Assembly (NCBI GenBank): GCA_037142615.1
Contig: JBAXAI010000003.1
Location: 32,001-96,000, forward strand
DNA: 64,000 nucleotides
Reading direction: 5' to 3'
Origin: Spirochaetales bacterium
GTDB taxonomy: Bacteria; Spirochaetota; Spirochaetia; JABEVK01
Below the pieces are notes generated by a model. That model did not search any database, was not told where the DNA came from, and was given only the letters and a program-made list of their open reading frames with translations. Numbering within the stretch: position 1 is the stretch's first letter; the number at the start of each line of letters is the position of its first letter. Positions 5,273 to 27,252 of this stretch are shown piece by piece. The position numbers and the translations under genes are program-made.

Positions 5273-5987
5273 GTGGCTGACGCCCGATGGCGTCTTCCCA
5301 GCGAACCAGGAACGCCTGGCGGGGAAGAACTTTGGCGCCGAGGTCGAGTTTGTACTTCATGTAGGGGTGCCCCAAGTTCCAGAACGCATAGCCGGCGTCG
5401 CGCAGGTGCTGGGCCCAGAGCACGAGCTGGAACTTGCCGGCGTTGTTCCACCGGCGGTCGGCCCGGTCAAAAAAGCCGGTCAAGCTGGTGTAGGTGGCTC
5501 CGGCAACGTAGCCTACCTCGCCGGCGACGAGTTGGCCCTCGGCGCTGCGCAGTTCCACGCTCAGCACTTGGAACTCCGGCTGGGGGTCGGCGGCAAGCTG
5601 CAGCAAGACGCGCCGGTATTCGGGGCAAAGCCACGACCGTTGGTGGTAGGCCGCGATGGCGTCGAGCAAGGGCTCCAGACGGGTCGAGGTGGTCAGGCGG
5701 GGGCATTCGTCCACGGGTCCGGAGAGGAACTTTTTGGAGCCGCGATCCACGACAAGGTTGGCCCAGTCGAGCACGGCGTAGTCCGTTTGAAGTTCCGGTA
5801 GCAGCAGGAAGGGGGGGTCGGAGTACTCCACTGCCGTGCTGATGAAGCCAGCGAGAGCCAGCTTGCGGTACCAGGCTGGACTCCAGTCGTGGCTCCAATA
5901 GTGGGTCTGCCCGGAATCGGCGACCAGGGACCGCCAGGCCGACCCGACCAGATCCGCCGGAGTCACCCGGTAGATCTGGCGGCTCAT
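5262..5987 (-). CDS. Leucyl/phenylalanyl-tRNA-protein transferase-like (Aat-like, GNAT fold) protein
   Basis: LVAGEVGYVAGATYTSLTGFF and GKFQL...WNLGHPYMKYK resemble the L/F-transferase C-terminal domain; start taken at ATG 5987. Confidence 0.6.
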   Translation of the reverse strand: MSRQIYRVTPADLVGSAWRSLVADSGQTHYWSHDWSPAWYRKLALAGFISTAVEYSDPPFLLLPELQTDYAVLDWANLVVDRGSKKFLSGPVDECPRLTTSTRLEPLLDAIAAYHQRSWLCPEYRRVLLQLAADPQPEFQVLSVELRSAEGQLVAGEVGYVAGATYTSLTGFFDRADRRWNNAGKFQLVLWAQHLRDAGYAFWNLGHPYMKYKLDLGAKVLPRQAFLVRWEDAIGRQPLKA

Positions 5988-14144: not shown

Positions 14145-15109
14145 TCGACCAGACTCCGGCCGGTCAGGCGCAAAAAGACGTCCTCGAGGCTCGAACGGCG
14201 AACCAGCGACGTCAGCGGGTGCAGGCCCTTGGCGGCGATGGCTTCGAGCACCGCCTCGCCGTCACCCGAGTAGATCAAAATGCGGTCGGGGAGCACTTCC
14301 AGGCGGTCGCCGAGGCCTTCGAGCTGTTTGGCAACGTCGGCGTTCTTGTCGCTGCCGAAGCGCACCTCGACCACTTCACGGCTCGAATAGCGGGCAATCA
14401 GGTCGGCCGGGGTGCCTTCGGCCATGATTTTGCCCTTGTCCATCACAATGAGCCGGTCGCAAAGTTGTTCGGCCTCGTCCATGTAGTGGGTGGTGATCAC
14501 CAGCGTCACGCCCTCTTCTTTGAGCCGGAACAGCCTGTCCCACAAGATGTGGCGGGCCTGAGGGTCAAGGCCGGTCGTCGGCTCGTCGAGCAGCAGAATG
14601 TCGGGTTCGTTCACCAAGGCGCGGGCAATGGTAAGTCGGCGTTTCATGCCGCCCGACAGGTCATCGACCTTGGTCTTGGCCTTTTCGGTCAGTTGGGCAA
14701 ACTCGATGAGCTCGTCGGCCTTTTTTTTGAGGAACTTGTGCGGCAGGCCGAAGTAGCGACCGTAAATGATGAGGTTTTCGCGCACCTTGAGCTCGGTGTC
14801 GAGGTTGTCTTGCTGCGGCACCACGCCGAGGTGGGCGCGGATGTCGGGGCCGCGCGTGTTGGGGTCGAGCCCGAGAATCGTCAGTTCGCCCGAGGTGCGC
14901 TTGGACACGCTGGCTACCATGCGCATGGTCGTCGACTTTCCGGCGCCATTGGGCCCGAGCAACCCGAAGGCCTCGCCCTTTTTCACTTCAAAATGGATGG
15001 AATCGACGGCCTTGAAGTCGCCGTAGGTTTTGGTCAGATTGTGGGCCGAAATCATCACGTCGGCCGCCGGTTGGGGAAGTTTGTTCACCGCGACAGTCTC
15101 GGCTTGCAA
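14141..15109 (-). CDS. ABC exporter ATP-binding protein (NodI-like)
   Basis: Walker A GPNGAGKST, LSGGMKRR, LLLDEPTTGLD; the start may be GTG at 15088. Confidence 0.92.
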   Translation of the reverse strand: MQAETVAVNKLPQPAADVMISAHNLTKTYGDFKAVDSIHFEVKKGEAFGLLGPNGAGKSTTMRMVASVSKRTSGELTILGLDPNTRGPDIRAHLGVVPQQDNLDTELKVRENLIIYGRYFGLPHKFLKKKADELIEFAQLTEKAKTKVDDLSGGMKRRLTIARALVNEPDILLLDEPTTGLDPQARHILWDRLFRLKEEGVTLVITTHYMDEAEQLCDRLIVMDKGKIMAEGTPADLIARYSSREVVEVRFGSDKNADVAKQLEGLGDRLEVLPDRILIYSGDGEAVLEAIAAKGLHPLTSLVRRSSLEDVFLRLTGRSLVE

Positions 15110-15155
15110 TGAAAAATTGTCAAAGGGTACCGAGGCACCGCGTGGGCGTGTCCGG

Positions 15156-15608
15156 TCACTTGGGCGGCAGTTCGACCAGTTCGGGAAAGTAGTAGTCCAG
15201 CGTGCCGTTGTCTTTGACGCGCAGTTCGGCGTAGCCCCGTTTCGACAAGTCGGTCAGCACGGTCTCGGCCTCTTCGAGCTTCAGGTCGGACTCGAGCACC
15301 ACCAGCGCGGGCGTCACGACTCCGCTTCGATTGCGGGCCACCTTCAGGACCGTCTTTTCGAGGGAGTCGCGGCGCTTGGTGTCCTTCTCGATGCGTTTTT
15401 CGAGGGCCCGGCGCTTTTCGTGGCTGCGGTCGGCAATCGCGGTGGCGCCCCGGCGCAGTCCCGTGATCACGGGGAGCACGCCAAAAACCAGGCCGAGACC
15501 CAGAGCCCAAGCGGGGTTGAGAATCTGAAAGAAGAACAGACCGTAGATTGCCGCTCCGGAGGTAAGCCCGGCGACGATGCGCTCGAGTCCTGACTTGGAT
15601 CTTGCCAT
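15156..15608 (-). CDS. Hypothetical membrane protein with a C-terminal winged-helix-like segment
   Basis: Two TMs, then GVVTPALV...LEEAETVLTDLSKRGYAELRV; ATG 15608 follows TTTACA-17-TATCTT. Confidence 0.65.
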   Translation of the reverse strand: MARSKSGLERIVAGLTSGAAIYGLFFFQILNPAWALGLGLVFGVLPVITGLRRGATAIADRSHEKRRALEKRIEKDTKRRDSLEKTVLKVARNRSGVVTPALVVLESDLKLEEAETVLTDLSKRGYAELRVKDNGTLDYYFPELVELPPK

Positions 15609-15764
15609 GCCCCGAAAGATACCGACACAACTGCGAGTTGTAAAGCGGAGGCGAAGGGCTTTGACGACTTCGCGACCAGCGTCCCTTTCGTGTCCCCCAG
15701 TCCAGTACAAGCTAGCCGTGCCCACGAAAATGAATCATCCTGATTGAATCTGATTGGAGGGTCT

Positions 15765-15938
15765 ATGGATCAAGCCCTGGCCGCTTGGGTCGACCTCGAG
15801 GAAGAAAAAACACGACTGACGTTGGAAGCCCTCAAGGATGTTGACGAAGGAAGAGTCGTCGAGCACGCAGACGTCCTCGCCTGGGCAGAAAGCTTGGCGT
15901 CCAGCGAACCGATTCCCGTCCCCGGTACTCCCGCTTGA
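15765..15938 (+). CDS. CopG/ParD-like antitoxin lacking its N-terminal ribbon-helix-helix domain
   Basis: QALAAWVDLEEEKTRLTLEALKDVDEGRVVEH..V.AWAESL matches the C-terminal part of this family; GGAGG RBS before ATG 15765. Confidence 0.7.
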   Translation: MDQALAAWVDLEEEKTRLTLEALKDVDEGRVVEHADVLAWAESLASSEPIPVPGTPA

Positions 15939-16210
15939 AGATCGTCTGGACCAGCAAAGCGCTTTCCGGCCTGGTCCGAGTCCACGAGTTTCTCGCGCGG
16001 GTGAATAAGCCCTCGGCGGCACGCCGGGTCTTGGCCTTTACGAAGGCCCCCGAGGTGTTGCTCTCGAACCCTCAACTAGGCGAGAGACTCGAAGAGTTTG
16101 CTCCCCGCGAAGTGCGCCGAGTTCTGGTGGTGGAATACGAACTGCGGTACGAGCTTCAGGAGACTACCATCTTCATCTCGCGGATCTGGCACACCAAAGA
16201 AAACCGCTAG
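15935..16210 (+). CDS. RelE/ParE-family toxin
   Basis: MKIVWTSKA.S.L.R..EFL...NP.LGERLEEF.PREVRR.LV..YE.RYE...RIWHTKE; overlaps the antitoxin stop. Confidence 0.88.
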   Translation: MKIVWTSKALSGLVRVHEFLARVNKPSAARRVLAFTKAPEVLLSNPQLGERLEEFAPREVRRVLVVEYELRYELQETTIFISRIWHTKENR

Positions 16211-16224
16211 GGTCCGCGAGAGAC

Positions 16225-16245
16225 GTCTGACCCCCGGTGGATTCA
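16225..16245 (+). repeat. REP-like repeat copy R1 (GTCTGACCCCCGGTGGATTCA)
   Basis: Near-identical to 18090-18120; its TCA is the stop codon of the Rpn gene on the minus strand. Confidence 0.75.
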
Positions 16246-17058
16246 GGATTTCAAAAGCGCCTCGACGGTCGCCGAAGGGAGTCCAGTCAGCGCTGCGACT
16301 TTGGCAACACTCATGCCATCTTCCAACAAGGCCGCTGCGACTTCGGCCTTTCCCTCGGCCTTTCCCTCGGCCTTTCCTTCTGCTTTTACGCTGAAGTAGT
16401 CATGCCGCTCCATTGACTCGTGTATCTCTCTGTAAACTTCAGGTTCAAACATGAGGTACGCCTCCATCCGTTGCTTCGCTGATCCGAGCAAGGCAACCAA
16501 ATCGGCCGGGCCGTTGGCTGGCCTCGTCTCGGGCTTCTCCAAGAATGTGTCCCAAATGGCCGCTTTTTTCAACAGCGTTCGGCGGCTCGGCGACCTCAGG
16601 AGTTTGGGAAGTTCCACGAAGATGAAGCCCAGATGTGCCGTATGTGGTAACCGAAAGTGGTGCAACCAAGGTCCTTTCTTTGAGATCTCATACTCGAGAA
16701 AATTGAGAGAAATGACCGGTTTCAACGTGGCGTAGTTTTCGCCTTTGGGGAGTTGGCGGGCAAAAAGGCGCGCCCAGTAGAACAAGGTCCGCTCGAAATA
16801 GGCGGGTTTGCGGGTAGTTTGCACTTCGACATTGATGATGCGGCCGTTGTCGTCTTCGGCCAACAGATCGAGAATTGCCAGCTTCTCGCCATTGTGTCCT
16901 GGAGTCAATTCTCGGGGCTGGAGCTGCAGCTTGTGGACCAGCGGCAGCCCGACGGCCTCGAAATGGGCGTTGACGAGACTTTCAAGGAGCGGTAAGCCTT
17001 CGGGCTCGCCAAAGACGTGCAAGAAAACGGAGTCGTGAGTGAGCGGGGAATAGGGCAT
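16243..17058 (-). CDS. Rpn/YhgA-like PD-(D/E)XK nuclease-family protein
   Basis: DSVFLHVFG, LDLLAED..GRIINVEVQ, R.LFYWARLF..QL.KGE.Y..LKPVI, FVELPK; C-terminal (AEGK)x3. Confidence 0.9.
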   Translation of the reverse strand: MPYSPLTHDSVFLHVFGEPEGLPLLESLVNAHFEAVGLPLVHKLQLQPRELTPGHNGEKLAILDLLAEDDNGRIINVEVQTTRKPAYFERTLFYWARLFARQLPKGENYATLKPVISLNFLEYEISKKGPWLHHFRLPHTAHLGFIFVELPKLLRSPSRRTLLKKAAIWDTFLEKPETRPANGPADLVALLGSAKQRMEAYLMFEPEVYREIHESMERHDYFSVKAEGKAEGKAEGKAEVAAALLEDGMSVAKVAALTGLPSATVEALLKS

Positions 17059-17180
17059 TTGGTACCTCGAGGTACCAGACAGGAAAAAGGGGCGTCTTGC
17101 TTCTACGTTGGTAACGAAATCGAAGGAATCGGGGTTTCGTTCTTGGGGACGCAGGCTGCTTTACGCGAATCTAGTTGGAG

Positions 17181-17224
17181 GCCTGGGCGACACTTCGTTT
17201 ACGCTTGGGCGACGCTTCGTTTGC
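17181..17224 (+). repeat. 22-bp tandem repeat, two imperfect copies
   Basis: GCCTGGGCGACACTTCGTTTAC / GCTTGGGCGACGCTTCGTTTGC. Confidence 0.65.
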
Positions 17225-17245
17225 GCCTGAATTCCCGCGGTGGAT

Positions 17246-17416
17246 TCATTCCACTGGCGGTGTCAGATTACTCCGAAGCAGCTCGTTCAGTAACTGCGAG
17301 GGGTCTTTTCCGGCCTTTTGGGCTTGTTGCTGCAAGAGAGCGGCGAGATCGGCTTCGAGGAAAACAGCCAATCGGTTGTCTGAGCGAGGATAGTACCTCT
17401 TGCCAACGATGATCAT
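17246..17416 (-). pseudogene. Orphan, truncated BrnA-like antitoxin fragment
   Basis: GKRYYPRSDNRLAVFLEADLAALL...LLNELLR resembles the antitoxin at 23711-23929 but lacks the YDF N-terminus and has no toxin partner. Confidence 0.5.
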
Positions 17417-17477
17417 GGCAAACGGATTCTGGAAAACACCCTCGGCCTGCTGGAAGGTTACTTTGCGGAATTTGGCG

Positions 17478-17497
17478 GAGGTCTGTCCCCAGGTGGG
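17478..17497 (+). repeat. REP-like repeat copy R3 (GAGGTCTGTCCCCAGGTGGG)
   Basis: Lies about 11 nt past the RAYT stop; variant of GAGGTCTGACCCCCGGTGG. Confidence 0.65.
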
Positions 17498-17508
17498 AAC
17501 ATGCCCTG

Positions 17509-18027
17509 TTATTGGAGGGTCAACAACCTGTGCGACGGAAACAGCCCTTGCAGCCAGGCCGGCAGAGGAGCGAGCCAGCTTGGTGGGCCAGTCCGTCGAA
17601 GCCCGACGCCGCCCCATTTCCACTGCTCCGGGGTGGAAACCAGTTCGGCCCTGACGGGATTGTTGTCGACGTACGCGAACACACGAAGAAACTCGACAAA
17701 GTTGGGGATAATCCACGAGAAGAACCGGCCACCCCAAAAGTGCCCCCAGAGGCCGTTGGCCTTGTTATAACGGATGGCGAACGTCTGGAGAATCCATTTC
17801 ATGATATTGGCGAGAGTTGAAGCCCCTTTGGGCTGGAGGATCAGGTGAAAATGGTTGCCCATGATCACGAAGTTGTCGAGGTGGAAGTCGAACTTCTCGT
17901 GTGCCCTGGCGAGCACGTCGAGGAACATCTGTTTGACCGTGTCGTGTTCCATCAGGAGTTTTTGGTGGTTGGCCCGGGCCGTGACATGGTATTTGGCGCC
18001 GTCCTGGATGATTCGGGGTTTTCTCAT
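17509..18027 (-). CDS. REP-associated tyrosine transposase (RAYT, Y1 HUH, IS200/IS605 TnpA superfamily)
   Basis: YHVTAR.N, FVIMGNHFHLIL (HUH), GHFWGGRFFS, YVDNNPVRA.LV..PEQWKW. Confidence 0.9.
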   Translation of the reverse strand: MRKPRIIQDGAKYHVTARANHQKLLMEHDTVKQMFLDVLARAHEKFDFHLDNFVIMGNHFHLILQPKGASTLANIMKWILQTFAIRYNKANGLWGHFWGGRFFSWIIPNFVEFLRVFAYVDNNPVRAELVSTPEQWKWGGVGLRRTGPPSWLAPLPAWLQGLFPSHRLLTLQ

Positions 18028-18086
18028 ACCTGCATGACTGCGATCGAGGCGGTTCTGCTTCTACGAATGACGAAGAAATCGGTTTT

Positions 18087-18120
18087 GAGGTCTGACCCCC
18101 GGTGCCCCCCGGTGGATTCA
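18087..18120 (+). repeat. REP-like repeat copy R4 (GAGGTCTGACCCCCGGTGCCCCCCGGTGGATTCA)
   Basis: Upstream of the RAYT; longest copy, with an internal CCCCCGGTG duplication. Confidence 0.75.
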
Positions 18121-18159
18121 CGATGGGATCACCTCTGGAGAGGTCAGTCCCTCCGAAGT

Positions 18160-18378
18160 CTACCGCGAGTGGCTGAGAATAAACTCCCGCAGCGCTGAGT
18201 TCATCAGGGTCTGGTAACCGATCTTTTCTTCACCGGCTTTTTTTCGAAAGTACAGGAGCACATCGTCGTCGAGTCGAATGGAAGTGGAGATTTTCTTCGG
18301 CTGATAGAACCGACCGCGGATTCCCTTGGAGAAGTCGTACTCGTCGGCAAGTTCAAACAAGTCCTCAGATTCTCTCAT
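18160..18378 (-). CDS. BrnA-family antitoxin
   Basis: EYDFSKG.RG.F..PKK.S.SIRLDDDVL.YF......GYQTLMN.ALRE. Confidence 0.9.
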   Translation of the reverse strand: MRESEDLFELADEYDFSKGIRGRFYQPKKISTSIRLDDDVLLYFRKKAGEEKIGYQTLMNSALREFILSHSR

Positions 18379-18649
18379 AGTGCTTTCGTTCATTCTGGCT
18401 GGCCTCCCTTGCCGAAATAATCCGGATCACTTCTTGACCGTTGGAATCGAAATACAGGTTGGCGACAACGAGAAGCCGGCCGTACGGGGTTTCGCCGATG
18501 GTGATCCAGCGCTCCTCGAAATACGAAAAACGATGATCCAGAAGCGAAACGTGCAGAGGGTCGGCAAACACCAACTTGGCCTCGTCGAACGACACACCGT
18601 GCTTCGCTTGGTTTGAGGCGTCCTTCCCTGCATCCCAGTCGAACGTCAT
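18365..18649 (-). CDS. BrnT-family toxin
   Basis: MTFDWD..K...N..KHGVSFDEA..VF.DP...EERW.TIG...IRIISAREA. Confidence 0.92.
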   Translation of the reverse strand: MTFDWDAGKDASNQAKHGVSFDEAKLVFADPLHVSLLDHRFSYFEERWITIGETPYGRLLVVANLYFDSNGQEVIRIISAREASQNERKHYERI

Positions 18650-18655
18650 GGAGGA

Positions 18656-18684
18656 AGCCTAGTGAGTTGTAGTGACACTGTCAA
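18656..18684 (-). promoter_or_regulatory. Sigma70 promoter of brnTA (probably leaderless) with an operator-like palindrome
   Basis: TTGACA-17 nt-TAGGCT-6 nt-ATG; TGACA-G-TGTCA palindrome overlaps the -35. Confidence 0.65.
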
Positions 18685-18845
18685 TGCAAGTACCGTGGAA
18701 TCAGTGGAGGTGAGGCCCCCGGTGGACCCCTGTGATTTCGAGACCGGTTAGAGGGGCGCCTGCCCCTCGCTTCAGCCTCCTCGGCGGGCGACCTTCGGAT
18801 CGCCAGCCTCCGGGGTCTTCCGCTACCCCCTCTGGGTCTACTGTA

Positions 18846-18866
18846 GAGGCCTGACCAGGGGTGGGG
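18846..18866 (+). repeat. Degenerate REP-like copy R7 abutting the RT stop codon
   Basis: GAGGCCTGACCAGGGGTGGGG immediately followed by TTA (RT stop on the minus strand). Confidence 0.45.
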
Positions 18867-20051
18867 TTACACTTTCCTAACTTTGGTAGCGTCCGGAACC
18901 AAAACGAACCGGCGCTTCCAGTGTGGCGATATTCGACTGGCCACTTCCTCGGTTCGAAACCGCCAACTCCGCGAATGGCGCAGAATACCCAAATAAGAGT
19001 TCATGCTCGCGAGGAAGGCCGCTTTCTGCTCGCGTTTGGGTGGCCTACGGGCGACAACGAGATTATGCCGGTCGATGGCCTGCCGGAAGTTGCTACGAAG
19101 CCGTCGGCTCGGGTACAGCCGGTCGGGACGCACGAAAGCCCCGAGAAACGCCACACCGACACTGGCCCGAGCCAGGCGAATCTTTCGAGGGTGCAAAGTG
19201 AGGGCGAGTCGGTCGTGAAGGAAGTTGCGGATAGCCGCAGTGGCGGTGACGAGCACCTCATGGTCGCGGTGCACCAGGAACAGGTCGTCCACGTAGCGGC
19301 CATAGCTGGCGATGCCTAGGGTGTGCTTCACGTAGTGATCCAGTCCGCTCAGGTAAAAGTTCGCCAGCACCTGCGAGGTCAGGTTGCCAATCGGCAAGCC
19401 GCAGCCCGAAGGAACTTTGAAGAGGCTCTTGTCGGCCGGAAGGTTGTCCCAGCTCGAAAGCGGGCTTTGTCGGCGGCAATCGCGGGTCGGGTCGGCCAGA
19501 ATCAGGTTTCGGAGCAACTGGAGAATCAGTTTCAAGTCGTCGCCGCGGTAAGTCCGGTTGAGGAAATCTTCCAGCAAGTTCAGCAGTTTGGTTCGCTGAA
19601 TGTTCATGAAGAACCCCTGGATGTCGAGACGTAGCACCCAGGGGTCGCAAGGTGGGTTTGACGATTCGCGGCGCAAGAAGCGCTGAAGCCGCGCTATGCC
19701 CAAGTGAGTTCCTTTGCCGACGCGGCACGAATAGCTGTCGTAAATGAACTCGCGCTCAAAAAGCGGATTGAGCCGACGGATCAGCACATGGTGCACCACG
19801 CGGTCTCGGAAGCCGGCGGCAAACACCTCGCGCTTGACGGGGGTTTCCACAATGAAAACGTTCGTGGGTGCAGGAACCCAGCTACCTGCGTTGAGCTCGG
19901 CACAAAGCTCAATCAACGAGTGTTCCAGATCGAGCTCAAAGGCGACGGCGCTGGGTTTATTGCGCTTGTGGCGACGGCACTCATGGTAGGCCTCAAAGAC
20001 TTCGGCCAACGAAAACGCAGGTGGAGAAAGAGGTTGCGGTGTGGCAGTCAC
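18867..20051 (-). CDS. DGR reverse transcriptase
   Basis: KREVFAAGFRDRVVHH, SYSCRVGKGTH, LDIQGFF, GLPIGNLTSQ..ANFYL (DGR-type SQ), YGRYVDD, FLGAF; start taken at GTG 20051 because the ORF-track start at 20081 lies inside TR. Confidence 0.95.
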   Translation of the reverse strand: MTATPQPLSPPAFSLAEVFEAYHECRRHKRNKPSAVAFELDLEHSLIELCAELNAGSWVPAPTNVFIVETPVKREVFAAGFRDRVVHHVLIRRLNPLFEREFIYDSYSCRVGKGTHLGIARLQRFLRRESSNPPCDPWVLRLDIQGFFMNIQRTKLLNLLEDFLNRTYRGDDLKLILQLLRNLILADPTRDCRRQSPLSSWDNLPADKSLFKVPSGCGLPIGNLTSQVLANFYLSGLDHYVKHTLGIASYGRYVDDLFLVHRDHEVLVTATAAIRNFLHDRLALTLHPRKIRLARASVGVAFLGAFVRPDRLYPSRRLRSNFRQAIDRHNLVVARRPPKREQKAAFLASMNSYLGILRHSRSWRFRTEEVASRISPHWKRRFVLVPDATKVRKV

Positions 20052-20072
20052 ACCGCAACCGGCCTGTTCAAG

Positions 20073-20183
20073 AGCCCGCACCGCCCGGACATAGTTTTTG
20101 TTGTTCTTGTTGTTGTTGTTCTGATTGCCATTGTCGAAGTTCTGTTTCCAGGCGTTGTTGTTGTTGTTCTGCGAAGAAGACCA
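20073..20183 (-). repeat. DGR template repeat (TR)
   Basis: 111 bp reading WSSSQNNNNNAWKQNFDNGNQNNNNKNNKNYVRAVRA; 43 adenines, 13 AAC codons; aligns without gaps to 20762-20872. Confidence 0.96.
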
Positions 20184-20348
20184 TGAGTGCGGGAGTCAGT
20201 ATGCCCGGCAGGCGTCTGCCGTCCATGTCGTGTTCCTGCCATCACCCGTGCCACTGGGGGCACCATGGGGATCTGCTGGCAGGCCCCGCACCGCTTTTGA
20301 ACGAAGCCTGGCTCGCCCGGCAACACCGTGACACTGCCGGTTCGGGCC

Positions 20349-20690
20349 TTACCGGTGGGCATTGCGCCATCCGGTGACCTGTTTGCTGATGCCTTCCATC
20401 AACTCGGCCAGCTCGGCCTGGTTGCGGATGGGCAGCAGTTTGAGGTCGGTGCACAGACGGATTTCGAGCTTGAGGACCTCGAAGTCGTCGAGGAAGGTTT
20501 CGAGGGGCACCTCCTTGTGTTGGGTCTTGTGCGCGCGGTAAATGCTGCGCACCAGCGACAAACAATCGCGCTTCATATCTTGGCCCAGGGTGAACTTGTA
20601 CTCGCGGGCAAAGTGCTGGGTGAGCTCGAACACCCGCAGGGTGAGTTTGTACACATCTTTGAACACCGGCAAGTCGTAATAGAGCGCCAG
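20349..20690 (-). CDS. avd: DGR accessory variability determinant (four-helix-bundle protein)
   Basis: ALYYDLPVFKDVY.L...F...F.REYKFTLGQ...I..A......L...E.LKL.IRL..DL.L......ISKQVTGW; lies between VR and TR; AGGAG RBS 6 nt before CTG 20690 (alternative ATG at 20732). Confidence 0.9.
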   Translation of the reverse strand: MALYYDLPVFKDVYKLTLRVFELTQHFAREYKFTLGQDMKRDCLSLVRSIYRAHKTQHKEVPLETFLDDFEVLKLEIRLCTDLKLLPIRNQAELAELMEGISKQVTGWRNAHR

Positions 20691-20700
20691 AGTGAACTCC

Positions 20701-20724
20701 TGAGGGGGGCGACCACCCCCCTCA
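20701..20724 (-). promoter_or_regulatory. GC-rich hairpin/cruciform downstream of VR (DGR homing element)
   Basis: TGAGGGGGG-6 nt-CCCCCCTCA, perfect 9-bp stem, 31 nt after the target stop. Confidence 0.8.
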
Positions 20725-20755
20725 ACCCCCATTCCAAAAAGTCAAAGGACAAAAG

Positions 20756-23266
20756 TCAAAAAGCCCGCACCGCCCGGACACAGCTTTCGTTGCCCTCGGC
20801 GTTGACGTTCTGATAGCCAATGGCGAAGAGCTGTAGCCAGGCGTAGTAGTTGTCGCGCTGCGAAGAAGACCAGTACCACTGCTTGGCGAAGCCTCCCTGC
20901 CCGTTCTTCGCGAGCACGGTGTAGAGCAGGTTCAGCTCGTCTTTGCTGGGCAAGAACCAGTCGTTGAAGCCGCCGGTGCTCAGGTCGTAGCACAGTTGGG
21001 CGGCGTAGCTACCGCTGCCTTGGGCCGCGATAATGGCCTCGGTGTTGGCTTTGCCGCTGCCGATCTTGGTGTCGGTTTTCACGTCGATGTGGCTGCCGTT
21101 GTACCACTGGATGCCGGCGCTGGCGTCGCTGGGGGCGGCCTCGAGGTAGCGCCATCCACCCGAGTTGTTGCCCTTGTCGTAAAACACAATGCCACCAGCG
21201 GGGCCCAGGTCACCCAGCTTAATCCCGGGTTTGTCGGCCACCACGTTGGTTGTTTGCCCGGCGGCGAGCGTGGCACTGCCCTTGTAGGGGATGCCGTAGT
21301 TGTCGGTCCATCTGACCTCAAGTTTCACGCTCCCCTCGGCCAGCTTCACCGTCAGCGGCGTGCTTCCCATCACCTGCCCGTCCACGTACACCTGCGCCAC
21401 GCCGTCGCCCTTTTTGGTGTTCACGACAAGCGTTCCCACGGCCAAGATGGGCTTGGCCCACTGGCCCAGCGCAAAGTACGCGGCCCGTTTGACGGCGGTG
21501 TTTTGCACCACCACCGCGTTGCTGGTCAGGTTGCGTACCCGCACTCCGCGCACCTCGACGGCGTAGCGCTTCTGGTCGGCTTGGCGCACCAGGCCCCAGT
21601 CCACTTCGGCGGTGAGCGCGTTGGCTTTCACGGCGGCGTCGAGGGCGCGGATGGCGGTCGCGGGGTCGTTGGCCAGGCCCAGTTCGGCCACCAACGGTAC
21701 GGGCGTGAGAGGTACGGTGGCGTCGGCACTGCCCACGGTGAACGGCCAGGTTTTGGCGTTGCGGTCGTAGGTGCCCACCGTGAGCGTGGCGGCGCTGCCG
21801 GTCAGCGTCCAGGTTTTCGTCTGCAAGGTGCGCAAGGTGCTATCGAACTGCGCCCGGATGCTCGCGGTCTGCGCCACGCGCTGCGCCTCGGCGCTGGCTT
21901 TGAGCTGGCTCAGGTCGGCCTGTCGTTTGCCTTCGAGCGTGGCGCGTTCCTGATTTTGACGGGTAGCAAACTCGGCGTCGCTTTCCACGATGTCGGCCTC
22001 TTCTTTGTCGATGGCCTTGACTTGTACATCCCACGTCGCGTTGGTGCTGGCCACGCTCTTGGCCAGCGCGGCGGCGTACTGGCCGTCGACCTCCTTGAGC
22101 ACGGCGTCGAGGCGTTCCACGGTGTCGATGAGCACGTCGGGGTTGTCGCTGGCGGCGGCGGTAGCCAGCTTGTCGAGCTCGGCGCGGCGGGTGGCAGCGA
22201 GGTTTCCCAGTTCGTTCTGCTTGGCGGCGGCTTCGTTGGCCGCTGTTTGCCGTTGCAGGCTCACCTGCTGGGCCTGCGCCGCCAATTGCGCCTGACGGGA
22301 GGCCTCGGCGGCCAGGTTGTCGGCTTCGAGTCTTTTGGCCGCCTGCAGGGCCTGTTGGCGTTGCTGTTCCACCTCGAGCTTCTGTTTGGCGCTGGCGTCT
22401 TTGGTGGTGTTGATCTTGGCTTGCAGTGCCGCCACCTGGGCATCGAGCGCGGCCAGTTCGGCGGTGCTCTTGGCGCTGGCCGACTGCGCCTTGGCGGCGG
22501 CCAAAGCGGGGTCATTGAAGTAAAAGGCCTTCGAGAGCCCGTCGTCCACACGGGGTTGCTGTTTGCCGCTGGTAGCCGCTTTCACATCGGCCTTCACCTG
22601 CGTCATCACCTCGGCCACCGTTTTGCCCGGCGCGGCGAGGTTTTTGAGCACCGCAGCCGTGAACACGCCGTTGCGGCCCGCACCGTCTTGCGCCACGTCG
22701 CCGGGCTGCGTGGCGTAGGCAATCAGCGTTTCGACGTCGCGCGGGGCGGCGATCGCGGCGAGGCCCCGGGTGCCCGACCGGCTGGAACCTGGGAACGGGT
22801 TGTCACGGCAGGCGTCAAGGAAGATGAGCGCCGTGGCCACCCCTGCGTCTTTGATGCGACCCAACACGTCGGCCAATGGCACGCCCCGGCTCTTGGCCTT
22901 GGCGAGGCTGGTGATATCTTCTTTGACTGGAATCAGATAGTTCTCGCCATCGGCTTGCACACCGTGGCCTGCGTAGTAGAACAAAGCGGTGTCTTTGCCC
23001 TTGAGGGCCTTCTGAAAGTCGGCCAAGGCCGCGTCCATGCCTGCGTAGTCGGCGTCGGTGCGCAACAACACGTCGAAGCCTTGCTCGCGGAGCGCGGCCG
23101 CGATGTCGGTGGCGTCGTTCACAGGGTTGGTGAGCGCGTTGCTGGCGTAGGCGCTGTTGCCAATCACCAAGGCAGCGCGGGTGTTTTGAGCGGCCACAGG
23201 AACGGCCACCACGGCGAAGATCAGGGCGAGCGCAAACAACGCAATCGGGCGGCTGAGAGTGTTCAT
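20756..23266 (-). CDS. DGR target: secreted caspase-family (Peptidase C14) protein with coiled coil, PEGA and C-terminal C-type-lectin-like (DUF1566/Lcl-like) variable domain
   Basis: Signal peptide ending VAAQ; ALVIGNSAY, FYYAGHG, IFLDACR, AYAT.PG..A.DG; VYVDG..MG.TP (PEGA); GPAGGIVFYDKG...WFLPSKDEL...YWSSS...VRAVRAF. Confidence 0.92.
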   Translation of the reverse strand: MNTLSRPIALFALALIFAVVAVPVAAQNTRAALVIGNSAYASNALTNPVNDATDIAAALREQGFDVLLRTDADYAGMDAALADFQKALKGKDTALFYYAGHGVQADGENYLIPVKEDITSLAKAKSRGVPLADVLGRIKDAGVATALIFLDACRDNPFPGSSRSGTRGLAAIAAPRDVETLIAYATQPGDVAQDGAGRNGVFTAAVLKNLAAPGKTVAEVMTQVKADVKAATSGKQQPRVDDGLSKAFYFNDPALAAAKAQSASAKSTAELAALDAQVAALQAKINTTKDASAKQKLEVEQQRQQALQAAKRLEADNLAAEASRQAQLAAQAQQVSLQRQTAANEAAAKQNELGNLAATRRAELDKLATAAASDNPDVLIDTVERLDAVLKEVDGQYAAALAKSVASTNATWDVQVKAIDKEEADIVESDAEFATRQNQERATLEGKRQADLSQLKASAEAQRVAQTASIRAQFDSTLRTLQTKTWTLTGSAATLTVGTYDRNAKTWPFTVGSADATVPLTPVPLVAELGLANDPATAIRALDAAVKANALTAEVDWGLVRQADQKRYAVEVRGVRVRNLTSNAVVVQNTAVKRAAYFALGQWAKPILAVGTLVVNTKKGDGVAQVYVDGQVMGSTPLTVKLAEGSVKLEVRWTDNYGIPYKGSATLAAGQTTNVVADKPGIKLGDLGPAGGIVFYDKGNNSGGWRYLEAAPSDASAGIQWYNGSHIDVKTDTKIGSGKANTEAIIAAQGSGSYAAQLCYDLSTGGFNDWFLPSKDELNLLYTVLAKNGQGGFAKQWYWSSSQRDNYYAWLQLFAIGYQNVNAEGNESCVRAVRAF
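20762..20872 (-). repeat. DGR variable repeat (VR)
   Basis: Encodes WSSSQRDNYYAWLQLFAIGYQNVNAEGNESCVRAVRA; 22 mismatches to TR, each opposite a TR adenine. Confidence 0.96.
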
Positions 23267-23272
23267 GCACAA

Positions 23273-23301
23273 AACCTAGGCGATGGAGCGCTCTGCGTCA
23301 A
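23273..23301 (-). promoter_or_regulatory. Putative sigma70 promoter of the DGR target gene (leaderless)
   Basis: TTGACG-17 nt-TAGGTT-6 nt-ATG(23266); no SD. Confidence 0.55.
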
Positions 23302-23411
23302 CGGGCCATTGCAAATGGAGGCGTTGCTTCGCACACCAACACTTCGAAGATTTGTTCCGAAACACACAAGCAAAACGGACGAAGTCCCCGTTACCACCAT
23401 GGGAGGGCAGC

Positions 23412-23714
23412 GTGGCGCTGGACTTCGACTGGGACATAGACAAAGACCTGGCAAATCGGAAGAAGCACGGTCTAGCCTTCGCCGAAGCGGCAGAAGTGTT
23501 TTCGGACGTTGATTTGATGACAAAATTTGACTGGGATCATTCCGATGGGGAAGAACGTTTCATCTCGCTTGGTCAATTGCCAAGTGGAATCACGCTCGTT
23601 GTCTGCCACACGATTCGCAACCGCGCTGGGGTCGAGGTGACCAGAATCATCAGTGCGCGAAAGGCTGACAAGGGTGAGCAAGCAGCTTACTATGAAGGGA
23701 AGGACGCCGAATGA
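23412..23714 (+). CDS. BrnT-family toxin (second copy)
   Basis: FDWD..K..AN.KKHGL.F.EA.EVF.D...D.DHS.GEERF.SLG...RIISARKA; GGAGG RBS before GTG 23412. Confidence 0.88.
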   Translation: MALDFDWDIDKDLANRKKHGLAFAEAAEVFSDVDLMTKFDWDHSDGEERFISLGQLPSGITLVVCHTIRNRAGVEVTRIISARKADKGEQAAYYEGKDAE

Positions 23715-23929
23715 GAGAACACTATGACTTTCGAGGTGCAGAGCGTGGCAAGTTCACAGTGCCCCGCGACCAACTCAGGATTCCCGTGTATCTTGACCCC
23801 GAAGTTAGCCAAGGTCTGAGGGAGTTGCTCCCTACGTTCGAAATGGGACTGGAAGAAACCGTGAACGAACTCCTGCGTCGAGAGCTTGAGAGCCTGCGCC
23901 AGAAAACCCCCAAGTCGACTGGTACCTGA
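23711..23929 (+). CDS. BrnA-like antitoxin
   Basis: MREHYDF.GA.RGKF...IPVYLDPEV...VNELLR; ATGA overlap with the toxin. Confidence 0.75.
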   Translation: MREHYDFRGAERGKFTVPRDQLRIPVYLDPEVSQGLRELLPTFEMGLEETVNELLRRELESLRQKTPKSTGT

Positions 23930-24009
23930 CCGCGCCCAAGCTGTTGAACTTGGGCCAATCCCGCAAGCAAAACCTCGTCAACCTCCGTTAGCTCAGGTAC
24001 AATGGAGGC

Positions 24010-24615
24010 ATGAGGAACATGGGAATCCCCGTACGAAAGTTTGACCAGCACTACACCTACCGCGACTACCGCCAATGGACCGGCGAGCGATGGGAACTCA
24101 TCCACGGCGTGGCCTACAACATGAGCCCGGCACCAAGGATTCCGCATCAAGGGGTGTCGGGCGAGATCTTTGGGCAGCTGCGGGATTTTCTCAAAGGGCA
24201 ACACTGCACGCCTTTCCACGCGTCCGTCGATGTGTTTTTCCCTCCGCTGCGCGAAATGGAGGAGGACGACGTGGACACCGTGGTGCAACCCGACGTCCTG
24301 GTGGTCTGCGACAAAACCAAGATCCGCAACAACGGCATTTGGGGTGCGCCGGACCTCGTGGTCGAGATTCTGAGCAAGTCGACCAGCCGCAAAGACCAGC
24401 ACGAAAAGTTCGACCTGTACGAGCGCGGTGGCGTGCGCGAGTACTGGATCGTCGACCCGAACGGCCAGTGGATCCAGCAGTACGTCCGCGAGGGGAACGG
24501 CAAGTTCGGTGTCGAGGTGACCTTCGAAAAGACCGGTCGCGTGGCCAGCGCCGTACTACCCGGCTTCGAACTAGACGTCGACGAAGTCTTCGCCGCGGGG
24601 CAACTTCCCGCATGA
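24010..24615 (+). CDS. Uma2-family endonuclease
   Basis: YTY.DY..W...RWELI.G..YNMSPAP...HQ, VVQPDVLVVCD, GAPDLVVEILS.ST...D...K..LYE..GVREYWIVDP. Confidence 0.92.
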   Translation: MRNMGIPVRKFDQHYTYRDYRQWTGERWELIHGVAYNMSPAPRIPHQGVSGEIFGQLRDFLKGQHCTPFHASVDVFFPPLREMEEDDVDTVVQPDVLVVCDKTKIRNNGIWGAPDLVVEILSKSTSRKDQHEKFDLYERGGVREYWIVDPNGQWIQQYVREGNGKFGVEVTFEKTGRVASAVLPGFELDVDEVFAAGQLPA

Positions 24616-24618
24616 GCG

Positions 24619-24676
24619 GCCCGGCCACGCGCCTGCGGCGCTTAGGCCCGGGCACGCGCCTTCGGCGCTTAGCCCC
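24619..24676 (+). repeat. Tandem hairpin repeat, two copies of CCCGG(C/G)CACGCGCCT(G/T)CGGCGCTTAG
   Basis: Direct repeat right after the Uma2 stop; each unit folds GCGCC-TNCG-GCGC. Confidence 0.6.
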
Positions 24677-24850
24677 ACACTTTCCGGGCAAGCCCGAAAA
24701 GTGTCCCCACGCGTAAGGTGCCTGGAGGGCGAGGCGCTCGCCAGAGGCGAACGTCCGGTTCCTGGGGGACGCCGCCCTGCGGCTTACCCCAGAACGGAAC
24801 CCCGGAAGGGACCGGCCCCGGCGACGTCGGCCTGCGGCCGCCTTACGCCC

Positions 24851-24995
24851 ACAGGTCTCGGCCGCTGGCCGAGACCTGTCATATGCCAACAATGCGGCCC
24901 GGCGACAACAGGAACGCGGGTCTGGCCTTGGGGTGGCAGGTAGACCGGCTGCGCTGAGCATTCTCTTCGCATGCTCAGCGCGGTCGGACTACCTG
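24851..24995 (+). other. Highly structured intergenic segment (possible ncRNA or mobile-element end)
   Basis: Perfect 13-bp stem 24851-24879; long stem 24937-24995 with G-U pairs on the + strand. Confidence 0.4.
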
Positions 24996-25099
24996 ACAGG
25001 ACCCCTGACCCCGATGATGCGTTCCTGGTGTCGCCGCGACCAACCTTGACCGGGGACACGCCCTTCGGTACAATGGGCTTCCGCATCCAAGGAGTCGCC

Positions 25100-25264
25100 A
25101 TGTCGAAAGCCCACCGGGGAAAACCCCTTCGTGAAACCCCCAACAGCAGCCGGGGTACTTGCCCCAGTTGCAGCCGCACCGCCATCAAGGTCGTGTACGA
25201 GCTTGAAGTCGCAGGTGCCAAGACCAAGGTCTGCAAGCAGTGCAAGGCCAAGGCGAAGGCCTAA
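25100..25264 (+). CDS. Small basic zinc-ribbon protein (54 aa)
   Basis: AAGGAG RBS; upstream TTGACC-17-TACAAT promoter; CPSC...CKQC; K/R-rich. Confidence 0.75.
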   Translation: MSKAHRGKPLRETPNSSRGTCPSCSRTAIKVVYELEVAGAKTKVCKQCKAKAKA

Positions 25265-26178
25265 ACCCAGCGCATCGTCTCGTCCGCGAGCTGTCCCGGA
25301 TCCTTCTGGGCAAGGACGAGCTTCTGCGGCGCGTGGCCCTGGCCGTTTTGGTCGGCGGCCATGTGCTCATCGAGGACGTTCCCGGGGTGGGCAAAACCAC
25401 ACTGGCGAAAGGCCTCGCTGCGGTGTTGGGCGCCAAGTTCCGCCGCATTCAATTTACCCCCGACCTGCTTCCGTACGACATCACGGGGTTTGATGTGTTC
25501 CACCCCGAAACCCGGCAGTTTGAGTTCCACCCAGGGCCGATCTTCGCGCAGGTGGTGCTGGCCGACGAAATCAACCGCGCCACGCCCAAGGTTCAGGCGG
25601 CCCTGCTCGAGGTGATGGAAGAACACCAGGTGACCAGCGGTTCGGTGACCCGGCCGATGGAACCGTTCTTTTTGGTGCTGGCCACGCAGAACCCGTTTGG
25701 CACCGAGGGCACCTACCCTCTGCCGTCGGCCCAGCTCGACCGCTTCTTTTTGCGCCTGTCGGTGGGCTACCCCGATTCGGCGTCCGAACGGGCGGTGTGG
25801 TTGCAAGACCCGGGCCACCACCTTTCGACGCTGGTTCAACCGTCGGTCAGTGTGGACGAATTGCTGGAACTGCGGCAGGGCTTGGATACGGTGCACGTGT
25901 CTGAAAAACTGCTGAACCTGATCGAAGCGGTGATTGGCCGGACCCGCAACCATCCGTCGGTGCTGCTGGGCCTGAGCCCCCGCGCCGGTGTGCACCTGGT
26001 GAAGGCCGTGCGCGCCTGGGCCTGGCTAGCGGGACGCGACTTTGCCACCGCGCGCGATGTCGCCGAGATCGCCGTAGACGTGCTGGCGCATCGGTTGCAG
26101 CTTCGCGACTTGGGCCTGAGCGCTCAAGCCGTGCTGCAAACCGTGCTCGACGAGGAGTTGGCACGCCATGAAGCGTGA
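25240..26178 (+). CDS. moxR: MoxR-family AAA+ ATPase
   Basis: GHVLIEDVPGVGKT, RIQFTPDLLP.D, LADEINRATPK.Q.ALLE.M.E, ATQNP...EGTYPLP.AQLDRF; start uncertain. Confidence 0.92.
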   Translation: MQGQGEGLNPAHRLVRELSRILLGKDELLRRVALAVLVGGHVLIEDVPGVGKTTLAKGLAAVLGAKFRRIQFTPDLLPYDITGFDVFHPETRQFEFHPGPIFAQVVLADEINRATPKVQAALLEVMEEHQVTSGSVTRPMEPFFLVLATQNPFGTEGTYPLPSAQLDRFFLRLSVGYPDSASERAVWLQDPGHHLSTLVQPSVSVDELLELRQGLDTVHVSEKLLNLIEAVIGRTRNHPSVLLGLSPRAGVHLVKAVRAWAWLAGRDFATARDVAEIAVDVLAHRLQLRDLGLSAQAVLQTVLDEELARHEA

Positions 26179-27252
26179 TCCGGGGGCCAAGCGGTTCCCG
26201 CTGACCCTCACCGGCGCCGGTTTTTTTTTGCCTCGTCGGTCCTGCTGACCGTCGGCTTTGTCCACGGGGAGCTCGCCACCCTGCTGTGGGGCGCGTTGTT
26301 CGCCTTTCTGGTCGTTTACACCGCCAGTGTTTCGCTGCTGCTCCGTCTCCGCGTTCCTGATTTGGTGGTCGAACAGGTGTTGCCGGCCGCCCATTCGGGT
26401 GAACCGACGAGACTTTCGTGGCGCTCGGGCTTGCCGGTGACGCCGCCTTTGTTCGTTTGGTCGGTGAGCGTGGTGGCCCGCCATGGGGCGCACCGCAAGG
26501 CCGTCGGCCGGTTTGACCTGGCTGCGGGGGCCTGCTCGTGGGAACTTTTGCGGGGGACCTACCAGACGACGGCCCGCCTGGAACTTCGCGACCTGTGGGG
26601 GCTGACCCTCTGGCGTCCCCGCGCCCGCTTCGACCTGACGATCAAGGTGCTCCCCGCGAAGTTTGCGTCGGCGGTGCCCCTGCCGACCGCGCGTCCCACC
26701 GACCTGACCGGTCCGCGCCAAGCGGTGCGCCGCTCGGGTGAGGCCTTCGACGTGCGGCCGTATCAGCCGGGTGACGACTTGCGCCGCCTTCACTGGCCCT
26801 TGTGGGCGCACTCGGGGCAAACGTGGCTGCGAATCCCCGACCTGACTCCACCCCCGACAGGCCTGAGCGTGTGGCTGGTCGATCTCAGCGTCCCGGCTTC
26901 GACACCGGATCCCGAGGCGGTGCTCGACCTTCGGGCTGGGAGCCTGGCGTTCTGGCTTCAGCCTGGCGAGGCGTGGACTCTGCAAGTGCCAGCGCTGGGC
27001 TTGGCTTGCAGCAATCCCGGCGAGTTGGGCAACTTCCTGGCGGCGCTGACGCCGAGTCAGGACGCACCTGACCCGGGCGAGCGCTGGCTTGGGAGCCTGC
27101 CGCCGGAAGTGCTTGTGGTGACAGGAGAGGGCAGTCCGGGTCTAGAAGCGTTGCGGAGGCTGCTCGAGCCCCGCACGCGGGTTCGGCCGGTGCTGGTTCC
27201 CCTGCCTTCGCCGATCGTGCTGGCCCGGCCTCGCTGGTGGGAGCGCCGATGA
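26168..27252 (+). pseudogene. DUF58 protein, frameshifted at a T9 run (26221-26229)
   Basis: VRPYQPGDDLRRLHWP DUF58 motif; the ATG 26168 frame stops after 26 codons, but one extra T joins it to the 26296-27252 ORF. Confidence 0.75.

Follow-up and report, generated by a model that had tools for sequence, protein, structure and literature searches.

We analysed a window of 64,000 nucleotides from a Spirochaetales bacterium (assembly GCA_037142615.1, contig JBAXAI010000003.1, positions 32,001 to 96,000 of the forward strand; coordinates below are those of the window unless a contig or locus is named) and found that it almost certainly carries a complete, chromosomal diversity-generating retroelement (DGR). 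The cassette consists of a target gene, avd, a template repeat (TR) and a reverse transcriptase (RT) gene, in this order and all on the − strand, and the variable repeat (VR) lies at the 3' end of the target gene. The reading frames of RT, avd and target are all open and intact. The host is an uncultured spirochaete (Spirochaetota) that lives in fresh water. The target is a protein of 838 amino acids (aa) with a caspase-type domain near its N-terminus and a lectin-type domain at its C-terminus, and we consider it rather probable that the locus as a whole is a complete DGR diversifying a self-contained, exported and ligand-directed protease-lectin protein. The parts of the cassette are as follows.

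18867..20081, − strand: RT gene, 404 aa as listed (RVT_1, 2.3e-16; phrog_1423, 2e-87)
20032..20060, − strand: hairpin 3' of the TR, perfect 12-pair stem, 13 nt 3' of the TR (terminator-like scan and RNA fold)
20073..20183, − strand: TR, with 43 adenines
165 nt: spacer between avd and the TR
20349..20732, − strand: avd, 127 aa (Pfam bAvd, 2.6e-17, above cut-off; phrog_3206 'Avd protein of DGR', 3.7e-20)
20701..20724, − strand: hairpin 3' of the VR, GC-rich 10-pair stem (one G-T pair) with the 4-nt loop GGTC, 37 nt 3' of the VR
20756..23272, − strand: target gene, 838 aa, listed start TTG at 23272
20762..20780, − strand: putative 3' end resembling an initiation of mutagenic homing (IMH) element, 19 nt, GC-rich, identical in TR and VR, the two sequences diverging directly after it
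20762..20872, − strand: VR, the last 37 target codons before the final Phe codon and the stop (codons 801-837 of 838)

The TR (20073-20183) and the VR (20762-20872) align without gaps over 111 columns, and all 22 mismatches between them fall on T of the + strand, i.e. on A of the coding (−) strand. The TR contains 43 adenines on the coding strand, and the probability that 22 mismatches placed at random over 111 positions would all hit them is 1.1e-11 (hypergeometric). Identity ends at 20073/20762 and at 20183/20872, and extension of the repeat is impossible on either side. Read in the target frame, the TR has 41 of its 43 adenines at codon positions 1 or 2, where all 22 mismatches also lie; 15 of the 22 adenine-containing TR codons are AAY, and a stop codon can be reached from only three (AAA, AAG, AAA). 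The theoretical repertoire (4^43) amounts to 7.7e25 DNA sequences and about 2.3e24 stop-free proteins. The initial annotation of this DNA, made from the letters alone, had described a complete DGR with an ungapped 111-bp repeat pair whose 22 mismatches all lie at TR adenines, an intact RT and avd, a downstream hairpin, and 43 mutable adenines giving 4^43 variants; each of these points was borne out, the arithmetic included. Translated, the TR still matches the end of the Lcl_C domain (C3:52076-52201). The genome (4.27 Mb) holds one VR for this TR and no remote VR; besides the TR and VR themselves, the 14 other genomic matches to the TR query are short (E >= 0.009).

By analogy with the function described for the Bordetella model (PMC5758913), the GC-rich end shared by the two repeats (20762-20780) may act as an IMH-like element. 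The hairpin 3' of the VR has a DNA fold of -12.7 kcal/mol (z = -2.6), which was equalled in 6 of 200 shuffles; it sits within the first codons of the avd open reading frame (ORF) as listed and has no counterpart at the same distance 3' of the TR. An inverted repeat after the VR is reported for 127 of 372 DGRs (PMC5758913). The other hairpin, 3' of the TR, overlaps the beginning of the RT ORF as listed. This RT resembles others only from about aa 24-28 onwards, so the true start is probably the in-frame TTG near 20010, and given that start the TR-downstream hairpin would be a candidate structured spacer of the DGR RNA. Neither a match to Rfam within 15000-26000 nor a sigma-70-like promoter upstream of the target on the − strand was detected.

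The RT matched 101 phage records by tblastn with 34-41% identity (five of them Bordetella phages), with at least 80% query coverage in 42 of the 101. It contains the motifs LPIGNLTSQ and YVDD; the former, which we take to be a marker of DGR RTs, is common to three further DGR RTs compared in this study. The arrangement avd-TR-RT corresponds to Architecture B1 of Wu et al. 2018, Architecture B overall being the commonest (253 of 372 DGRs; PMC5758913). The VR belongs to the DUF1566/Lcl_C class ('CLec2', Legionella-like).

Comparison of the window with database proteins and public sequencing runs revealed that the DGR has been recently active: three VR alleles occur on near-identical backgrounds, and the adenine rule is kept throughout. 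P0001, a database protein, and the target of the window share 96% identity. Their first 600 residues are the same, 21 differences fall in the last 45 columns and 14 in the preceding 195, and every change in the VR affects an adenine-containing TR codon and can be reached by adenine changes alone. Parts of the element were present in 20 of the 22 listed public runs (13 studies of fresh, lake or pond water), and at least half of its sampled words in four runs. Four runs from four studies were aligned to the window as assembled contigs only, in which minor variants are hidden. A loose contig end before 20837 in run X7 represents the third VR allele, which differs from the TR at four places over 30 nt, all four at TR adenines, and in runs X2 and X5 the contigs break at the VR (20780 and 20858, respectively). 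The RNA runs X12, X17 and X18 contained only 0.08-0.12 of the sampled words. In six of eight family clusters (90% identity) near-identical members differ mainly in the last ~35 residues, the tails being identical in the remaining two, and turnover of the VR is therefore a trait of the family.

Differences outside the VR are also unevenly distributed. In the closest pair, all 14 non-VR differences fall in the 195-residue lectin/PEGA scaffold (window 20880-21480) and none in the other ~600 residues (P = 3e-9); in another pair all six do, and the excess in the scaffold is significant in five of six clusters. The scaffold changes seen in run X2 are ordinary substitutions that are not adenine-restricted, and this clustering of non-VR differences could reflect either recombination or selection.

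Three further observations concern single sequences. Run X1, which is probably the source sample, contains a separate low-depth contig of 273 nt that covers the TR (20075-20183) with four other letters and runs into dissimilar sequence left and right; it may derive from another strain's related TR or VR. A contig of run X2 has 84 other letters in place of 26 at window 20689-20716, the region of the VR-downstream hairpin. Finally, the proteins P0004 and P0205 (cluster 3) share a frameshift-like extended tail that begins inside the VR, which may stem from an indel made by the DGR or from faulty assembly; their 90%-identical mates end normally.

The target protein is built of the following parts, listed from its N-terminus.

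23189..23272, − strand: signal-peptide-like N-terminus (aa 1-28), with a hydrophobic core and a VAA/QN end
22520..23179, − strand: Peptidase_C14 domain (aa 32-251; Pfam, 4.6e-37), with His103 (YYAGHG) and Cys155 (LDACR)
21818..22510, − strand: predicted helical stalk (aa 255-485), four long helices at 255-289, 293-373, 378-422 and 432-485 (AlphaFold2, pLDDT 74-92)
21473..21811, − strand: beta-rich middle domain (aa 488-600), modelled mostly as strands (pLDDT >90), no Pfam match
21242..21436, − strand: PEGA domain (aa 613-677; Pfam, 2.7e-5, 24.4 bits against a cut-off of 20.8), modelled as a beta sandwich (pLDDT ~90)
20765..21127, − strand: Lcl_C (formerly DUF1566) lectin-type domain (aa 716-836; Pfam, 2.8e-9), whose C-terminal end is the VR

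An ATG two codons inside the listed ORF (23266) is the start of the database copies P0198 and P0001. The N-terminus has a charged start followed by a 20-residue hydrophobic core (Kyte-Doolittle 12-residue maximum 3.12) and no lipobox, and the signal-peptide call relies on a simple hydrophobicity rule of our own, not on a dedicated predictor. A similar N-terminus is present in 19 of 20 close homologues and in 40 of 45 members of the wider family, the exceptions being mostly truncated records, which suggests that the protein would be exported. The claims made earlier for the target, namely a caspase-family domain with both catalytic residues, PEGA, a DUF1566-type head holding the VR and an exported-looking N-terminus, were all recovered, and the proposed profile check gave Pfam matches for Peptidase_C14, PEGA and Lcl_C (DUF1566).

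The match to Peptidase_C14 scores 128.4 bits (cut-off 21.4) and covers model positions 2-233 of 233. In the AlphaFold2 model, computed from a 20-row alignment (mean predicted local distance difference test score, pLDDT, 76.6; predicted template-modelling score, pTM, 0.48), this part is predicted as a confident caspase fold, with pLDDT mostly 80-90. The nearest solved relatives of the protease domain are chains of the MALT1 paracaspase (7e-8 with the single sequence, 2.8e-20 with the family profile), and YYAGHG and LDACR of the target align with YYAGHG and LDMCR of MALT1. His103, Cys155, Asp53 and Asp153 are present in all 20 close homologues, Arg156 is invariant, and the catalytic His and Cys occur in 40 and 41, respectively, of the 45 family representatives. 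Asp53 and Asp153 align with MALT1 positions that presumably line its Arg-specific S1 pocket; a literature search for the residue numbers was unsuccessful. The MALT1 dyad is H415/C464, and the enzyme requires dimerisation and is activated by induced proximity (PMC3747146).

The stalk is composed of 26% Ala, 12% Gln and 2% Pro+Gly and matches no Pfam family. An Atlas search with aa 255-690 returned only structures with low template-modelling scores that resemble PEGA, and no usable feature match. The lectin region also matches phrog_4245 (1.3e-33, aa 661-838), and its profile matches PDB chain 8q4e, 'HbP1' (5.9e-13). PEGA is also found in clusters automatically named S-layer proteins.

A word-indexed protein search for relatives of the target yielded 1302 proteins at E<=0.001 among 8000 scored candidates. 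Among the 120 matches listed, Peptidase_C14 is combined with Lcl_C in about 50 and with FGE-sulfatase in 16, and the named sources are Spirochaetota, Rectinemataceae and Sphaerochaeta, with Smithella in one distant row (27% query coverage). The middle region (aa 372-612), for which there is no Pfam family, was used in an exhaustive phmmer search of 1.84 billion representatives; 99 cluster representatives matched at E<=1e-3, 55 at 1e-10 and 23 at 1e-30, nearly always at about residues 370-610 of full-length proteins. The region is specific to the family and defines it. Of the 45 representatives with at least 700 aa, 43 contain Peptidase_C14, 12 FGE-sulfatase, 9 Lcl_C and 10 PEGA. The family therefore consists of a conserved unit (signal peptide, caspase, helices and beta domain) to which exchangeable lectin heads of both DGR classes are joined.

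A search for other caspase-lectin DGR targets, which the initial annotation had proposed, was successful in another phylum. A profile scan of genome contigs selected caspase motifs in at least 600 stretches, of which 80 loci, mostly generic caspases from many phyla, were kept. One of these 80 alone, L017 from a Victivallales genome, has an adenine-restricted repeat pair (24 of 25 TR/VR mismatches at A); it encodes a 686-aa target made up of signal peptide, caspase, helices and FGE head, and avd, RT and TR come after the target gene. A metagenome scan with the middle region found only four loci, one of which (L101) is the same element as that of the window. Another (L104:4757-4936) encodes a 770-aa member without PEGA, followed by a 30-residue avd remnant (80% identical) and then by AT-rich unrelated genes, and it looks like a lost DGR.

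Of the 401 genomes sampled from the phylum, 5 contain a full-length relative, and 3 of 12 genomes of the order were matched, the other two by the lectin part only (the window genome is counted in both figures). RT and full-length target were not found in four genomes of the same genus (80-99% complete), and the element is thus accessory. Across four related loci there is no conserved neighbour gene, which fits a self-contained protein.

By analogy with the Bordetella and Legionella systems, diversification would proceed as follows. The TR would be transcribed, and RT together with Avd would copy the TR RNA into cDNA, misreading adenines. The GC-rich 3' end common to both repeats and the hairpin that is present only after the VR would then guide replacement of the VR by the cDNA. 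In this way 22 codons at the C-terminal tip of the target would be rewritten, the TR remaining constant. As for the protein, its hypervariable head may pick a ligand, and the protease, whose specificity is probably for basic P1 residues and which probably depends on dimerisation, may cleave the bound molecule or a neighbour.

We put forward only tentatively that the target works as a ligand-directed protease, either in the envelope or outside the cell. The idea of a ligand-triggered or retargetable extracytoplasmic caspase, raised in the initial annotation, is a reasonable suggestion of the same kind. A real catalytic role is favoured by the invariance of the dyad and of the pocket residues and by the full conservation of the protease half between strains. 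A more ambitious version, in which a hypermutable head, swappable between DUF1566 and FGE types, would aim the caspase at changing targets (phage particles, surface proteins of competitors, prey) and the whole would be a programmable extracytoplasmic protease, is doubtful. Selection on the choice of target is compatible with the lectin/PEGA scaffold outside the VR, which between strains changes much faster than protease and stalk.

Several observations weigh against a DGR-diversified, ligand-directed exported protease. As regards the cassette, the NCBIfam model DivGenRetAVD scores Avd at 52.6 bits (cut-off 80). The single VR-spanning contig of run X1 equals the window sequence, and no within-population variation was seen in the assembled contigs. 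Full-length relatives at L102 and L103 have neither RT nor avd within the available flanks, and L104 keeps only the 30-aa avd remnant, so the scaffold also exists without a DGR in cis. As regards the protein, the type-I signal peptide is accompanied by neither a lipobox nor a known surface-sorting domain; the periplasm is the default location in a diderm spirochaete, and it suits the role of a sensor as well as that of a weapon. The NCBIfam model of EACC1-type caspases (NF047832) gives 57.9 bits, below its cut-off of 140, and no small EACC1 gene adjoins the target, upstream of which lies a divergent BrnT gene. The 'long coiled coil' of the initial annotation survives as four long modelled helices (aa 255-485), but the heptad periodicity of the stalk is weak in a crude test, and the four helices could fold back on themselves. 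The lectin head is modelled with a pLDDT of 33-65, and its fold and the exposure of the VR are suggested by Pfam and profile matches.

The sensor role could take the form of an envelope sentinel: the head would sense an invader component such as a phage protein, clustering would activate the caspase, and cleavage of the cell's own envelope proteins would lead to growth arrest or death, much as has been suggested for lectin-caspase conflict systems inside cells. It has been proposed that DGR-diversified lectins sense antigens for the peptidase effectors to which they are linked, in some cases in the periplasm (PMC10907252, PMC8195603), and MALT1, the closest solved protease, is activated by induced-proximity dimerisation (PMC3747146). 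The default periplasmic location of a protein with a type-I signal peptide in a diderm, the toxin-antitoxin (TA) genes that flank the element, and the 22 Peptidase_C14 matches in the genome, an expansion of the kind that published work ties to conflict systems, all agree with it. However, neither STAND nor any other nucleoside triphosphatase (NTPase), adaptor domain, EACC1-like small gene or separate effector adjoins the target. The sole NTPase nearby is that of a MoxR cluster on the opposite strand, behind two other genes; the related loci have no conserved partner, and nothing indicates latency of the protease. We regard a sentinel as a doubtful explanation.

Alternatively, the protein might be a variable adhesin or surface-layer component that binds particles, cells or polysaccharide, with the caspase serving in self-processing, anchoring, maturation or structure. 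Legionella LdtA, the best-studied target of the DUF1566 class, is displayed on the surface (PMC5758913); PEGA occurs in the clusters named after S-layer proteins, and a paralogue on contig C20 (described below), with membrane helices and an adjacent Lcl_C lipoprotein, suggests an envelope-anchored assembly. On the other hand, all 20 close homologues keep the dyad, the two pocket aspartates and the Arg after the catalytic Cys, and between strains no part of the protein varies less than the protease domain (0 differences in 600 residues), which argues for selection on a catalytic function. No cleavage site or anchoring motif was identified. We consider an adhesin unlikely.

It is very improbable that the element is a fossil, i.e. 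that the repeat pattern records past mutagenesis by a cassette no longer working here. The initial annotation had held that a monomorphic VR across reads and strains would mean a dormant element, and indeed X1, the run closest to the source, has one VR contig, which matches the window exactly, and the cassette has been lost in relatives, as the avd remnant of L104 exemplifies. However, X1 says little, because assembled contigs hide minor variants, whereas the VR does differ between strains and metagenomes (P0001, X7): the three ORFs are intact, and unrelated VRs on proteins identical over 600 residues, plus a third allele, all obey the adenine rule.

The surroundings of the element were examined for possible partners and phage genes. 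The following features lie in its flanks.

18160..18649, − strand: BrnT/BrnA pair just downstream of RT (Pfam BrnT, 7.3e-25; BrnA, 5.6e-12)
23283..23929, + strand: second BrnT with a 72-aa partner, divergent from the target (Pfam BrnT, 1.6e-21; partner without Pfam match)
25240-29324, + strand: row of MoxR (AAA_3), DUF58 and transglutaminase-like genes, then a TPR protein

The downstream flank, beyond RT, contains the BrnT/BrnA pair, genes for an IS200-like Y1 transposase and for PDDEXK_2, and a ParE pair; on the upstream side of the target, the divergent BrnT pair is followed by a Uma2 endonuclease gene (PADLOC candidate family PDC-S03). A PHROGs scan of 10 ORFs found no phage structural family, and PADLOC reported only a generic caspase model, generic RT models and the PDC-S03 candidate. 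The region is thus an island of TA and mobile genes in which no recognised defence system was found. The earlier description of it as a TA/defence island without phage genes holds as far as ParE, the two BrnT/BrnA pairs, PDDEXK_2, the Y1 transposase and the missing PHROGs structural match are concerned, but 'defence' was too strong a word for generic PADLOC models. The MoxR-DUF58-transglutaminase-TPR row looks like a housekeeping cluster. That the target serves as the sensor in a ternary conflict system of the MoxR type, together with the nearby MoxR gene (25240-26178), is hardly credible, and the row was rejected as a partner: an AAA_3 ATPase does lie 2 kb from the target, with a weak match to the bpMoxR model (9.1e-9), and published DGR clades often carry MoxR beside the target (PMC10907252), but here it stands on the opposite strand beyond a BrnT pair and the Uma2 gene and heads a housekeeping-type row, there is no vWA or VMAP match in 20 neighbouring ORFs (Pfam), and no MoxR lies beside the homologue in L102, L104 or L017.

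The rest of the genome contains further genes of the same kinds. There are 22 Peptidase_C14 matches above the Pfam cut-off in the 4.27 Mb, corresponding to about 20 caspase-family genes (e.g. C3:102316-102978, ~6 kb past the window end), which is a large expansion for a spirochaete, and seven Lcl_C matches. A second complete DGR, of the HRDC type, was identified on contig C55 (3397-7996; L097, L099), with the TR at 3437-3571 and the VR at 5139-5273; all 18 TR/VR differences are at TR adenines, and its target, a lipoprotein of 953 aa, terminates in a lectin part of the FGE type. A third DGR is present on contig C67 (378-4085; L098, L100) and comprises a 680-aa FGE-type target, HRDC and RT (TR 3944-4085, VR 2268-2412; 14 of 18 substitutions at A, plus a 3-nt indel). 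Contig C67 may be a binning contaminant (GC 52.6% against 61% for the genome).

The DGRs of the window and of C55 share types of flanking genes, namely PDDEXK_2 genes beyond RT and a nearly identical Uma2 endonuclease gene beyond the target (window 16243-17058 and 24010-24615; C55:333-1043, 2390-3532 and 8893-9507), which could represent multicopy families or a shared island type. Contig C20 (59280-62350; L094) carries a split paralogue of the target: a protein of 813 aa with signal peptide, caspase, helices, beta domain and membrane helices at its end, sharing 63% identity with the target over aa 11-661, and then a separate Lcl_C lipoprotein with a VR-like, Ser-rich tail. A 554-aa exported caspase-Lcl_C fusion without a stalk, followed by an AAA+ ATPase gene, is encoded on contig C2 (~114151-115815; L110:304-1968). 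Neither the C20 nor the C2 region is among the TR matches of the genome.

Apart from DGRs, no natural machinery outside vertebrate immunity is known to rewrite a binding site on demand. The present locus is a clean, recently active example: its variable head is part of a protein that also contains an enzyme whose active site is intact, and that bears an export signal. The middle region recurs in 99 cluster representatives of a family with constant protease and stalk and an exchangeable head, so the result of any assay would generalise. If binding directs cleavage, the protein would be a natural model for retargetable proteases, and a programmable protease would be the bacterial analogue of enzymes guided by antibodies; otherwise the locus is an ordinary but useful reference for DUF1566-class DGRs in Spirochaetota.

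The architecture of the target is notable but not unprecedented, caspase-lectin DGR targets being already known; the novelty claimed for it in the initial annotation has to be withdrawn in view of PMC7517822 and PMC8195603, and of L017 in another phylum. What was not found in print is the combination of a DUF1566-class VR with an exported C14-helical-PEGA scaffold, here in a member of the Spirochaetota, although the supplementary tables of DGR surveys may list it. Caspase-type DGR targets have reportedly been published for Trichodesmium as well (PMC4143802). Among related architectures, metacaspase-FGE-sulfatase was in 2012 the fifth commonest extra-domain combination of prokaryotic metacaspases (33 of 671; PMC3501461), caspase/STAND/FGS architectures with DGR components have been described (Kaur et al. 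2021, PMC8195603), as has a CHAT-TIR DGR target in Thiohalocapsa (PMC10907252), and a 2025 preprint (PMC12642450) mentions cysteine proteases whose genes neighbour EACC1 and which are joined to domains linked with DGRs. Neither PMC8144416 nor PMC11661182 refers to caspase or peptidase in its main text.

In its layout, the element resembles the DGR of Legionella pneumophila and its target LdtA (category 'd'/CLec2, PMC5758913), with which it shares a target upstream of avd-TR-RT, a C-terminal VR of the DUF1566 type, a GC-rich inverted repeat after the VR and an exported target. LdtA, however, is a short surface lipoprotein without an enzyme domain (PMC5758913), whereas the target of the window has 838 aa, a protease domain and no lipobox; the main text of PMC5758913, as distinct from its supplementary tables, names no caspase among category 'd' targets. 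With the Bordetella phage BPP-1 (mtd-avd-TR-brt) the element has in common the gene order, adenine-specific differences, a GC-rich, putatively IMH-like end, a downstream inverted repeat and Avd; unlike BPP-1, it is chromosomal, its target is not a tail fibre and no phage structural genes lie nearby. The TR of the window abuts the listed start of RT, and the corresponding spacer in the Bordetella phage is longer. The Treponema denticola DGR with its target TvpA (HRDC, 'Architecture C' of Wu et al. 2018) comes from the same phylum, and the genome of the window also has two HRDC-type DGRs (C55 and C67), whose targets are lipoproteins of the FGE type; in contrast to the TvpA system, the element of the window uses Avd instead of HRDC and has a DUF1566-class VR and a protease-bearing target.

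The caspase/STAND-NTPase/FGS conflict systems linked to DGRs (PMC8195603, PMC10907252) are similar in that they combine a hypervariable lectin with a peptidase in a TA and mobile setting, with many caspase genes. Unlike them as described there, the target of the window has no NTPase, EAD adaptor or separate effector, looks exported rather than cytoplasmic and carries another class of lectin. The likeness to MALT1 (PDB 3v4o and others), which is eukaryotic and cytoplasmic and has death and Ig domains, is limited to the protease domain.

The closest counterparts in overall plan are the cyanobacterial orthocaspase-CLec DGR targets (CLec, C-type lectin; Vallota-Eastman et al. 2020, PMC7517822). 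Their heads are of the FGE-sulfatase (CLec1) type, whereas the head of the window target is of the Lcl_C/DUF1566 type and does not classify as FGE; most of them are predicted to be cytosolic, in contrast to the signal-peptide-like N-terminus found here; and the 230-residue helical region, the family-specific beta domain, PEGA and the Spirochaetota host are peculiar to the window in this comparison. Both, however, place a caspase-type peptidase at the N-terminus and a lectin fold tipped by the VR at the C-terminus, and the authors of PMC7517822 raise the same two roles for the head, as an activator of the protease or as the part that chooses its substrate.

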